Assembly (NCBI GenBank): GCA_964016885.1
Contig: OZ024741.1
Span: 318,308,001-318,372,000, forward strand
Source: Eledone cirrhosa
Lineage: Eukaryota
DNA length: 64,000 bases
Direction of reading: 5' to 3'
Part shown: one piece after another, positions 27,290-54,072 of the stretch
Layout: each line of letters opens with the position of its first letter
Numbering within the stretch: position 1 is the stretch's first letter
The notes under the pieces: generated by a model
Told to the model about the DNA's origin: nothing
The model's input: the letters and a program-made list of their open reading frames with translations, nothing else
Databases searched by the model: none
Position numbers and translations under genes: made by a program

Positions 27290-27653
27290 ATATCCAGTGC
27301 TTTTATCGAGAATGACACAGCTAGAGACTTATAGAATACTTAGCTGTGTACAGGAACTGGTTTGAAAGAGCGGTTGCCGGTCCGGCAGAAATTAGAAATT
27401 GGAATAAATGCTCTGAAATAGCGATATATATGTGAATATAGACATAGAATATTCGAAAATACTCTGTATGTTTATAATAAACATTTTGAAGACCTAATCG
27501 CTATAGAATAGAATACGTCACGTATTACAATTAGATTATTCCAATTTCTAATTTCTGCCGGACCGGCAACCGCTCTTTCAAACCAGTTCCTGTACACAGC
27601 TAAGTATTCTATAAGTCTCTAGCTGTGTCATTCTCGATAAAAGCACTGGATAT

Positions 27654-27696
27654 GTAGTCCTGAAGATTTCTAACAAGAATGAAACGCGTAGATTAC
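27654..27696 (+). ncRNA. Minimal type-I hammerhead ribozyme
   Basis: GTAGTC-CTGAAGA-tTTCT aaca AGAAt-GAAA-CGCG-TA-GATTAC: canonical core, 6-bp stem I, palindromic stem III. Confidence 0.92.
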
Positions 27697-27963
27697 TTCC
27701 CTTGCTTTTATCGAGAATCTAATTGTAATACGTGACGTATTCTATTCTATAGCGATTAGGTCTTCAAAATGTTTATTATAAACATACAGAGTATTTTCGA
27801 ATATTCTATGTCTATATTCACATATATATCGCTATTTCAGAGCATTTATTCCAATTTCTAATTTCTGCCGGACCGGCAACCGCTCTTTCAAACCAGTTCC
27901 TGTACACAGCTAAGTATTCTATAAGTCTCTAGCTGTGTCATTCTCGATAAAAGCACTGGATAT

Positions 27964-28006
27964 GTAGTCCTGAAGATTTCTAACAAGAATGAAACGCGTA
28001 GATTAC
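27964..28006 (+). ncRNA. Minimal type-I hammerhead ribozyme
   Basis: Identical to 27654-27696, offset +310 bp. Confidence 0.92.
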
Positions 28007-28273
28007 TTCCCTTGCTTTTATCGAGAATCTAATTGTAATACGTGACGTATTCTATTCTATAGCGATTAGGTCTTCAAAATGTTTATTATAAACATACAGA
28101 GTATTTTCGAATATTCTATGTCTATATTCACATATATATCGCTATTTCAGAGCATTTATTCCAATTTCTAATTTCTACCGGACCGGCAACCGCTCTTTCA
28201 AACCAGTTCCTGTACACAGCTAAGTATTCTATAAGTCTCTAGCTGTGTCATTCTCGATAAAAGCACTGGATAT

Positions 28274-28316
28274 GTAGTCCTGAAGATTTCTAACAAGAAT
28301 GAAACGCGTAGATTAC
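28274..28316 (+). ncRNA. Minimal type-I hammerhead ribozyme
   Basis: Identical to 27654-27696, offset +620 bp. Confidence 0.92.
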
Positions 28317-28790
28317 TTCCCTTGCTTTTATCGAGAATCTAATTGTAATACGTGACGTATTCTATTCTATAGCGATTAGGTCTTCAAAATGTTTATTATA
28401 AACATACAGAGTATTTTCGAATATTCTATGTCTATATATATATATATATATATATATATATAAATATATATATGTGTGTGTATGTATCAAAAAGTAATAA
28501 TTGTTTCTACTTTTGGCACAAGGCCAGCAAATTACCCAGTGTATTACTGGTACTTTATATATAAATATATATATGTGTGTTAAATGATGGGTTTCGCTTA
28601 GCATTAGAATTTCTTATACTCCCACACCCACTACGCGGAGCAGGTTGTCCCAAACAAAGGTAAATTCCGTTGATTTCTTTAGATTCGTCTTATATGCAAA
28701 TGTATCCAATTATGAGAGGTGACTGTCGGAGTATAAGATATATATATATATATATATATATATATATTATATACACATACATATATATAT

Positions 28791-28975
28791 AGATCTTTGT
28801 TATATATAGAAATGGACTAGAACTTTCATTATATATATATATATATATATATATATATATATATATATATATATATATATATATATATATATATATATAT
28901 ATATATTGATAAGGAGTGATGATTTCATACGAATGAAAGTTCTAGTCCATTTCTATATATAACAAAGATGCCTAT
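28791..28975. mobile_element. Small fold-back stub with degenerate HHR, split by (TA)n
   Basis: TGATGA-tTTC atac GAAt-GAAA-GTTC-TA-GTCC at 28917-28948. Its 3' part recurs inverted at 28794-28830. Confidence 0.55.
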
Positions 28976-52000: not shown

Positions 52001-52169
52001 GGCGTCGTAGCCGTTAAAATAATTTAATGTATATATATACATGCGTATGTGTATGTGTATGAAAATACATTTCCTCTTTCTGCTCTACGTCAGAATAACC
52101 ACCCACCATGGGCAGAGCAAGCCATTAAAGAAAATATATGCAAATTATATTTAGAGAAAAATGACAATT

Positions 52170-52540
52170 TGCAGGAAGACAGGATATCCTGTGACATTCA
52201 TCTGTCTTGATTATCTAATATAGTTCTTCCATCTCTATCGTATATCAGATATCACTACTCAGATAACTTAACTGCTCATGGTGGAGATGGGGGAATGCCC
52301 ATTTACATGACTTTAAGTCCGAACTAATGACCCGAGGAAAATGTTCGGGGCTTAACTGATCACTTCCTTTTTATGTTGGTCGTCGTCACGTTGTGTGCTC
52401 TCGATGCCTGAAGTGCCGTTTTCCTCCGCAAAATTGGGAGGATTGCATCTCGCCTGAGGAAGGAACCTCATGAGGTAGAGTGGCTGGTGTAGTGAGTCAC
52501 GGTGGCTGTTCTCAGTGGCAATGTGTTCGCCAATGTGTAT
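52170..52540 (+). mobile_element. Relic of a CRE-like non-LTR element (restriction-like endonuclease C-terminus)
   Basis: LTDHFLF..TLCALD..FLRKIGRIA..EPHEVEWLV**VTVAVLSGNVFA resembles the ETLG..FL..LGRR..EPRE..WL.QRLS.AV.RGN terminus. Confidence 0.5.
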
Positions 52541-53173
52541 TTTCATTTTCAAGAACAAAATTTTCTAATTACGCCCTTCCGCCAAAAAAAAGAAGAAGAC
52601 ATTTTTATGGTTGGCTTTATAATAAAATGGTCCTCCGTCTATTTCGGCAATGAATATTTCGGTGCTTCGACTAACGGAACTGCCTGCTAATGAAATTAAC
52701 TTGAGCATTCGATAGAAATTGTTGCTAGCTGATTGGATTGCAGCAACATGAAATAATGTATTGTGTTCAAGACACATCGCGCTATAGTGAATCGACCTCA
52801 TGTTTTTACGATCGTGAGCTGGACTTCTTAACCAATAAGCGCTGCGTTTACACATACATACATATCCAGGCCATGAGTGAATATATAAAACATACTTATA
52901 TATATATATAAAATTAATATTTTATTTCTCGCTTCAGCATGTATTTCTACGTATGCATGCTTACATTTATCTATCTATATATATATATATATATATATAT
53001 ATATATATATTAGAAGGGTGCTCTGGAATAGCGATATATATATGAATGTATATATAGTGTATTTTGCAATACACTGTATGCTTAATTAAAAGCATTTTGA
53101 AGACCTTACGCTATTGTTTTAGAGTAGTGACAGTCTTACTTACTTTAAATTTTCAGCAAACAGGGGGAGATAA

Positions 53174-53218
53174 AGCTGACAGAGCTCTGTTTCGTACTAT
53201 TTGGTACTTATCAAAGCT
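53174..53218 (-). ncRNA. Type-I hammerhead, U3-A8 variant
   Basis: AGCT-TTGATAA-GTAC caaata GTAC-GAAA-CAGAGCTCTG-TC-AGCT. Confidence 0.82.
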
Positions 53219-53471
53219 AAGTACTCCACCTGTTTGCTGAAAATCATGAATGTTTGATTCTTATAGAATTCTAGTAATAATCAGGAACTGATTATACAGA
53301 ACGGTTGCACTATATATATACATTCATATATATATCGCTATTTCAGAGCACCAATTCTAATTTTCAATTTCTGCTTGACCGGCAACCGCGCTGTATAAGC
53401 AGTTCCTGATTATTACTAGAATTCTATAAGAATCAAACATTCATGATTTTCAGCAAACAGGTGGAGTACTT

Positions 53472-53516
53472 AGCTTTGATAAATACCAAATAGTACGAAA
53501 CAGAGCTCTGTCAGCT
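53472..53516 (+). ncRNA. Type-I hammerhead, U3-A8 variant
   Basis: As 53174-53218, with one stem II substitution. Confidence 0.78.
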
Positions 53517-54072
53517 TTACCTCCCCTGTTTGCTGAAAATTTAAAGTAAGTGAGACTGTCACTAAAGTAAGTGAGACTGTCACTAAAGTAAGTGAGACTG
53601 TCACTACTCTAGCGTAAGGTCTTCAAAATGCTTTTAATTAAGCATACAGTGTATTGCAAAATACACTATATATACATTCATATATATATATATATATATA
53701 TATATATAAAATGTGGAGAAGGAGCACACGAGTTGGAATATATATATATATGAAAATAGGGAGAAAAAGGCGATTATTAGGAAGACAAATTTTTTTTTTT
53801 CCTTTTATTTTTTCTCTTTATTCTGGGTTAGAAAATGCTTAAAACAAAATATTTTACTTTGTGTGAAGTATTAAGGTATTAGTTAATTTATTTATTAATT
53901 AACAATGGCATTTATTTATTTATTTATATATTTAAGAAAAAATAGAAAAAATAAAAGGAAATAAAATATTTGTGTTCCTAATAATCGTCTTTTTCTCCCT
54001 ATTTTCGTATATATATATATATATTATGAAAATAAACCAAAGAAGCCTTCAATACATCAAAAGTCTTTATTA

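Follow-up and report, generated by a model that had tools for sequence, protein, structure and literature searches.

Three families of short non-coding repeats, here named A, B and C, lie in a 64,000-nucleotide stretch of the Eledone cirrhosa genome (GenBank assembly GCA_964016885.1, contig OZ024741.1, forward strand positions 318,308,001 to 318,372,000; the window in the following). They occur genome-wide and have a common Penelope-type insertion anatomy. The reading that we prefer, and to which we give somewhat better than even chances, is that all three are likely copied by a Penelope reverse transcriptase and probably derive from one ancestral chassis, which would hold a hammerhead ribozyme in A and C and a tRNA mimic handled by the host in B.

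The host genome comprises 3.0 Gb and is rich in (TA)n. Within the window, hammerheads occur in several short repeats, and at least three Penelope-like elements of the autonomous type were found, with a GIY-YIG domain at the C-terminus. An earlier note on this DNA had described the three families as units of about 300 bp that lie inverted and partly tandem in (TA)n. The arrangement was borne out, with flanks consisting mostly of (TA)n, while the unit lengths had to be corrected to 310 bp (A), 290-291 bp (B) and 320 bp (C). Copies were counted genome-wide as exact-pattern matches, for which all reversed-pattern controls gave 0. This resulted in 17,100 units with the A/C chassis, 994 units of sibling types of A/C, 855 matches to a C-type anchor and 2,340, 3,014, 2,199 and 234 matches to four anchors of B-type units. 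B splits into four subfamilies (B1-B4) and the window copy belongs to B1; B4 is apparently older, differing by 4.7-9.1% from the column majority, although the samples for B1-B3 are small. Copies of family A are 99-100% identical to each other, and their arrays comprise as many as about 19 units. In three of these arrays (C1 1239980-1244161, C1 22619350-22621166 and C3 208985620-208986933) the period is 311 or 308 throughout both arms, as though each insertion had been copied from a single monomer variant.

The insertion ends were analyzed for A, B and C at loci that were the best matches to the queries. A locus has either a single arm or a pair of arms fused tail to tail; the 5' ends vary, and the 3' ends fall at two fixed sites. 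For B, 29 of 51 arms ended at unit positions 237-240 and 17 at 168-177, for C the corresponding values were 26 of 57 at 304-308 and 19 at 12-19, and the arms of A end at 289 and 5. A region with a 9-mer shared by the families forms one of the fixed ends in B and C, and A stops one 7-base repeat earlier. The two ends are 26 bases apart in A and C and 45-70 bases apart in B. As arms often exceed one unit, reaching 1,575 bases in B, either the templates were multimers or circles or the enzyme made jumps. In the window, the arms are arranged as follows:

27088..27537, minus strand: inverted arm of family A, about 1.45 units of 310 bp; the 3' end is the downstream ('tail') site.
27536..28449, plus strand: tandem arm of family A, about 2.9 units; the 3' end lies at unit position 289 and runs into (TA)n.
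45888..46147, minus strand: inverted arm of family B in two pieces, unit 139-168 and unit 137 through the tRNA head to 74.
46147..46386, plus strand: forward arm of family B, unit 1-240; the 5' end lies at the tRNA start.
46308..46321, plus strand: two 7-base repeats with the shared 9-mer, where B inverted arms end (unit 168 and 175).
53009..53308, minus strand: inverted arm of family C with an intact U3-A8 hammerhead, core from 53214 downward.
53313..53689, plus strand: forward arm of family C with a local duplication; the 3' end lies at unit position 308.

A tail together with an inverted copy is described as a signature of Penelope-like elements (PMC8557442), and in the reported in vitro work on a Penelope element two adjacent internal start sites produced the 'tail', with insertion being independent of hammerhead cleavage (PMC11167929). 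All three families combine a partial tandem and an inverted arm with two fixed 3' ends and an AT-rich target, as expected of non-autonomous Penelope-like elements. The insertion anatomy supports the earlier proposal that the families are Penelope-type parasites, and we regard Penelope-type mobilisation of A, B and C as highly likely. What speaks against it is that an autonomous partner was searched for without a match, both in 60 endonuclease loci (from 10,596 and 66,777 candidates) and in 1.5 Mb of sequence. A young autonomous Penelope-like family, with a copy at 40205-45663 of the window, was considered as partner and rejected, since its ends are unrelated. Its 150 scored copies are 94-100% identical in the endonuclease part, and open frames of 830 amino acids are found elsewhere. 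The two end sites of this family are about 165 bases apart, far above the usual tail, and no hammerhead was seen in it.

Judged by their sequences, A and C are homologous type I hammerhead retrozymes. Outside the module, C is 77-80% identical to A, and both consist of tandem non-coding units within the retrozyme range of about 170-400 nt with one type I hammerhead per unit. The hammerhead cores that the earlier note had reported for A and C are present in both, and all siblings of A and C with a readable module hold a hammerhead in the long stem:

27631..27717, plus strand: long stem of A with type I hammerhead, minimal palindromic stem III; core 27660-27666, predicted cut after 27690.
53447..53539, plus strand: long stem of C with hammerhead; core 53476-53482, predicted cut after 53512.

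Positions 3 and 8 of the core co-vary: among 27 aligned rows the pair is C-G in 18 rows and U-A in the other 9, so that it is kept in all 27. The core of C is the U3-A8 variant. From this pairing we infer that the U3-A8 core retains activity; partial rescue is reported for a different 3-8 swap (PMC11167929), and our literature search found no paper on a U3-A8 hammerhead core. In the plus copy of C in the window, the first base of stem II is substituted, and the intact C hammerhead is therefore the minus copy. Rfam did not call the hammerheads of A and C among the matches listed (150 of 169 rows). Three sequencing runs of unrecorded kind each gave one contig of 340 bases (a unit plus overlap), which fits both a tandem array and a circle. 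More U3-A8 hammerheads lie at 21239-21451 and 32378-32741 of the window and at three other loci, also downstream of GIY-YIG endonuclease frames, and the variant is thus present in autonomous-type elements of this genome. Further inverted hammerhead-bearing Penelope end pieces were seen at 30161-30803, 47969-48592, 54000-54310 and 340-420; the piece at 54053-54123 has a weak Rfam HH9 match (29.1 bits).

Family B carries a tRNA-like head, and its window copies contain no hammerhead core. As the earlier note had recognized, the head folds as a tRNA cloverleaf: both heads in the window score 38.1 bits against Rfam RF00005 (gathering threshold 29) and are called by ARAGORN, and nine of ten sibling B loci are called tRNA-like as well. 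The proposed long stem around the module needs a qualification, because its two arms belong to different copies in the window; full natural units carry both. The following features belong to the module:

45923..45995, minus strand: tRNA-like head of B, minus copy (Rfam and ARAGORN).
45999-46010: 5' arm of the B long stem, inside the B inverted arm.
46145..46218, plus strand: tRNA-like head of B, plus copy; A box from 46153, B box 46195-46205, A58 at 46201.
46226-46230, plus strand: five T behind the head of the plus copy.
17326..17467, plus strand: worn old B-type copy (T arm and chassis), E 1.4e-9.

This old copy has an A at position 58 together with a B4-like anticodon loop, a possible link between the subfamilies. 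In B2-B4 the head has seven acceptor pairs, extended by the long outer stem. Three types of anticodon loop occur in 80, 30 and 21 of 153 B1-B3 heads and a fourth in B4. Due to this variation the B head is not a working tRNA, as a functional tRNA gene has a fixed anticodon and a full acceptor stem. Nor does B show two marks of short interspersed nuclear elements (SINEs) and TRIMp3 elements, namely a terminator-free body and either a tail of the long interspersed nuclear element (LINE) type or long terminal repeats (LTRs) with target duplication. A third mark of these elements, the A and B boxes, is intact in B1-B3, the T loop is unchanged in 114 of 153 copies, and at least five T follow the head in 133 of 153. 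In B4, position 58 is T or C and never A (31 of 31 loops), the B box is broken, and runs of at least six T occur in 32 of 37 copies, with two runs in 19.

By the pattern of sequence change, the cloverleaf of B appears to be kept by selection. Conservation of the head exceeds that of the chassis (60-63 of 71 positions versus 62-68%, both measured against B4), 92.8% of the cells in the cloverleaf alignment pair, and pairing is preserved or improved by each of the four differences that separate the stems of B2 and B4. Two observations weigh on the other side: covariation is weak (8 of 500 shuffles, few two-sided changes), and B1, the subfamily in the window, has only five acceptor pairs.

The earlier note had proposed one chassis with an interchangeable module for all three families. 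This holds for A and C, which share it, and probably for B, where the tRNA-like module takes the same slot. In a profile-profile alignment of the B and A/C chassis, running from stem end to stem start, the score was 23.1; at block sizes of 1, 3, 6 and 12, this value was reached by 0, 1, 0 and 1 of 500 shuffles, and the true register was the best rotation. The single B2 and B4 chassis outscored all 600 genomic segments, and B1 was beaten by 29. Several results point the other way. Neither blastn nor nhmmer found a significant match between B and A/C (best nhmmer E 0.18-2.7), 25 pairwise alignments gave z values of at most 2.5, shuffles with blocks of 20 reached the profile score in 15 of 500 cases, the profile test with A alone was matched in 147 of 600 cases, and the A/C profile gave 18.0 and 19.6 for two further hammerhead units of the window. 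Taken together, common descent of B with A and C is moderately supported by the alignments, and we consider it probable. It is rather unlikely that B is an unrelated tRNA- or SINE-derived repeat that converged on the Penelope-type pattern. Such an origin would fit the silence of blastn and nhmmer, the different end spacing and the position of the shared 9-mer, which is the downstream end in A and C and the upstream end in B; it is opposed by the collinear profile alignment, which is best in register, and by the use of the same long-stem slot.

Further evidence on the B module came from the points at which its copies are truncated. Here, patterns 3' of the head served as anchors and were walked upstream in genome order. 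Among the laps of B1-B3 that reached position 72, 53 of 80 ended at positions 57-68 (B1 20/30, B2 18/27, B3 15/23), compared to 2 of 52 for B4 (p 4e-14). Counting one lap per locus, the values were 46 of 67 and 1 of 49, and outside the T arm every six bases brought a loss of a few percent. B4 shares the T stem and the palindrome, so neither accounts for the pile-up in B1-B3. This T-loop-dependent truncation indicates that the B RNA is probably handled as a tRNA in vivo; we hold it very likely that tRNA-like handling causes the stop, and slightly favour 1-methyladenosine at position 58 (m1A58) itself as the cause. 1-Methyladenosine is reported to truncate reverse transcription, and TRMT6/61A to act on GUUCNA T-loop structures, also outside tRNAs (PMC11019747); installation of the modification on precursors is reported in a preprint (10.64898/2026.05.17.725798). 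The earlier suggestion that B acts as a tRNA mimic on the RNA level thus gains indirect support from structural conservation and T-loop-dependent truncation.

Two findings count against the modification itself. In the unbiased set, 40 of the 53 truncations lie at 63-65 and only 5 at 57-60, and the link to A58 therefore requires a trimming step. Furthermore, copies that were read through show no excess of substitutions at A58 (4/153 versus 48/1,683 at other A). The pile-up is most simply read as a stop immediately 3' of A58 with subsequent trimming back to the closest microhomology, a reading that we slightly favour. It is less probable, but a serious candidate, that the T loop is nicked by a nuclease, or that a folded or protein-bound elbow halts the enzyme at the T stem. 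A cut or stall of this kind would explain why the ends peak at 63-64, on the 3' strand of the T stem, and why no misincorporation is seen at A58, and T-loop cuts that yield 3' tRNA fragments are known (PMC10275265). Against it stands the smaller second cluster at 57-60, where a block at A58 would fall and where both arms stop at about 59 in loci L270 and L272. Moreover, the ends at 63-65 almost all adjoin TA repeats or the mirror-image (palindromic) partner arm, as trimming predicts.

A weaker pile-up was observed at tRNA position +1. In a pattern-selected set, from which nine B4-like or short loci and edge-touching arms had been dropped and for which the window of -3 to +4 was chosen after inspection, 12 of 50 arms that passed the T arm ended at -3 to +4 (p 3.6e-5), and for B4 the value was 1 of 29. 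Some B ends include leader bases (-1 to -3). The +1 cluster in the best-match loci is partly a query bias and was not used as evidence. At the predicted hammerhead cuts, a control that rests on A and C, 5' ends did not pile up, with one such end among 30 laps of C and no such end in 17 loci of A.

These observations can be combined into a model. A Penelope enzyme would prime at two internal sites, one of them the shared 9-mer region, and the two arms made in this way would be joined tail to tail. In A and C, the hammerhead would cut multimers and a host ligase would close circles, giving rise to long arrays. The published retrozyme route consists of cutting, host ligation and copying of circles or multimers (PMC7229834), and this standard route, which fits the long A/C arrays, may by analogy apply to both families. 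In B, the unit may be transcribed by read-through of RNA polymerase II (Pol II) and fold as a tRNA. The RNA would receive m1A58 from TRMT6/61A, which would block reverse transcription in about two thirds of the passes, and the blocked end of the complementary DNA would be trimmed back to AT or CATG microhomology at 63-65. RNase P may take the place of the ribozyme and cut at +1, inside the long stem that would hold both ends together. RNase P is described to cut tRNA mimics within Pol II transcripts, e.g. MALAT1 (PMC8053782). Nevertheless, we rate such a cut as the main use of the B module as a real possibility rather than a probable one. In the unbiased B1-B3 set only 1 of 16 ends lies at +1, 38 of 50 arms of the pattern-selected set run past +1, and B4 moved without either the T-arm or the +1 signal, so that neither may be needed. 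In its most specific form, which we put forward tentatively, one lineage of Penelope parasites swapped its ribozyme for an RNase P-recruiting tRNA mimic in the same ligation stem, and the copies are a fossil map of an m1A58 block from which the subfamily without A58 escaped.

The head of B might instead serve mainly as an internal promoter for RNA polymerase III (Pol III) in a SINE-like or TRIMp3-like Penelope parasite, with starts near +1, leakage through the T runs and modification as a side effect; we consider this doubtful, though it accounts for several of the data. The A and B boxes are intact in B1-B3 and the T loop is mostly unchanged, B4 with its broken B box has no pile-up at +1, and the leader bases at some ends would fit a start near +1. 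Precedents exist in that Cassandra is described to start in one 5S repeat and to end in the next, and Helenus repeats to hold tRNA boxes (PMC10886601). Against these stand the T runs directly behind the head, the spread of B4 despite its broken B box and often two runs of six T, and the conservation of stems outside the boxes, unlike in Helenus. The arms that extend upstream of +1 would additionally require multimers, circles or template jumps. In this weighing, we relied on the usual start distances and terminator strengths of Pol III. The T runs, the mobility of B4 and the conservation of the stems lead us to favour, by a narrow margin, a use on the RNA level over a Pol III promoter.

The earlier note had read the shared motifs upstream of the stem as a portable promoter of the small nuclear RNA (snRNA) type, with an ACCG-core proximal sequence element and a TATA-like box. 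For A, this concerns the following region:

27546..27615, plus strand: region of A earlier called a promoter, with 9-mer, spaced motif and TATA-like word (27610); only a weak resemblance to host U1/U2/U5 spacing.

The spaced motif is indeed present at 27569, 46336 and 53385 with the 9-mer upstream. It is not especially rare, as 2 of 10 matches in the window and 4 matches in 502 kb of flanks fall outside the families, and it is poorly conserved, with the first word kept in 9 and the second in 14 of 27 hammerhead-family rows. In relatives of B it is altered, and B1 units from other loci have the ACTT form. The TATA-like word is kept in 25 of the 27 rows; in B, however, no such word exists at 46369, which lies near an insertion end. 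For the comparison with host genes that the note had called for, we retrieved U6, U1, U2 and U5 loci. The spaced ACCG motif and the 9-mer occurred within 300 bases upstream in none of 28 distinct U6/U1/U2 regions, and the ACCG 4-mer in 1 of 18 non-redundant host regions. The host promoters use other elements: the 11 non-redundant U1/U2/U5 promoters have AATTA at -88 to -91 (11/11), TCAGT at -55 to -58 (10/11) and a TATA-like word near -30, which is unusual in snRNA genes transcribed by Pol II. U6 genes are different, with an octamer-like box near -78 in 4 of 7 regions plus TATA; in several U6 genes of a tandem cluster on C19 the upstream box is seemingly replaced by a repeat insertion. The host elements may be useful for expression tools in this animal. 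Since the spaced ACCG motif is missing from the 28 host regions, is poorly kept in the families and has no part in the elements that the host uses, we rejected it as a proximal sequence element. The 9-mer that the families share lies at one of the two ends of insertion.

A variant of the promoter idea replaces ACCG by the real host elements, so that a portable Pol II promoter of the U1/U2 type would precede the stem in A, C and their siblings. We consider this improbable. A and C do show AATT, YCAGT and TATA words at host spacing, a relaxed pattern that occurs once outside the families in 502 kb; in both families the stem has a pyrimidine-A step where position +56 would lie, the TATA-like word is retained, and the region has no covariation for an RNA fold. 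However, the pattern was loosened after the data had been seen, and none of the family copies fits the strict host version. A matrix derived from the eleven host U1/U2/U5 promoters scored 21-32 bits for these when each was left out in turn, compared to 5.4 bits at the proposed site of A and less than 4.9 bits for C. The families are thus at background, at which 1,331 of 492,928 positions score at least 8. The T of TCAGT, near-invariant in the host, is kept in just 13 of 27 rows, and B has no match or site at all. That the motif words are conserved RNA hairpins, as single-sequence folds had suggested, was not established because a consensus fold of 22 sequences has 7 pairs and no two-sided change.

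Apart from these families, the window contains two broken LINE-type elements with endonuclease and reverse transcriptase frames (55600-62300, minus strand, and 30785-32243).

B can be regarded as a natural swap experiment on the purpose of the hammerhead, whose cleavage is dispensable in vitro. Its T-loop-dependent truncation, with a subfamily as built-in control, suggests that insertion break points can reveal the folding and modification of transposon RNA in the germ line and hints that a tRNA modification can restrain a retroelement. Retrozymes as derivatives of Penelope elements (10.64898/2026.07.22.740005) and tRNA blocks in the repeat units of LTR miniatures (PMC10886601) have already been published. 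Our literature search, with Repbase and most subscription journals outside its coverage, found neither a tRNA-bearing Penelope parasite nor an insertion truncation linked to m1A58.

Among known systems, the animal non-LTR retrozymes resemble A and C in that their non-coding tandem units measure about 300 bp, hold a type I hammerhead and are poor in GC, and in their proposed dependence on Penelope elements (PMC7229834; 10.64898/2026.07.22.740005). They differ in that B has no hammerhead, that C-type units have the U3-A8 core and that no homology to an autonomous pseudo-LTR was found for the three families. Penelope-like elements and their non-autonomous forms (MRC1) share the partial tandems, the inverted truncated copy, the two-start tail and the AT-rich or (TA)n targets. 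In contrast to them, A, B and C are non-coding and the ends of B are 45-70 rather than 30-40 bases apart; the parts of these accounts available to us mention no tRNA module (PMC8557442; PMC11167929). Like B, MALAT1 mascRNA and NEAT1 have a tRNA mimic in a longer transcript that RNase P can cut, but these are single-copy host genes for which cutting has been shown, whereas for B it is predicted (PMC8053782). Finally, the TRIMp3 elements Cassandra, Helenus and Ajax and the tRNA-derived SINEs share with B a block derived from a small RNA in a non-autonomous repeat unit, but are described as needing LTR or LINE partners and having target-site duplications. According to the same source, Helenus conserves only the promoter boxes, whereas B conserves the cloverleaf, with a T run directly behind it (PMC10886601). 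By this comparison, A and C are further retrozymes and B would widen the class to a ribozyme-free, tRNA-bearing form.

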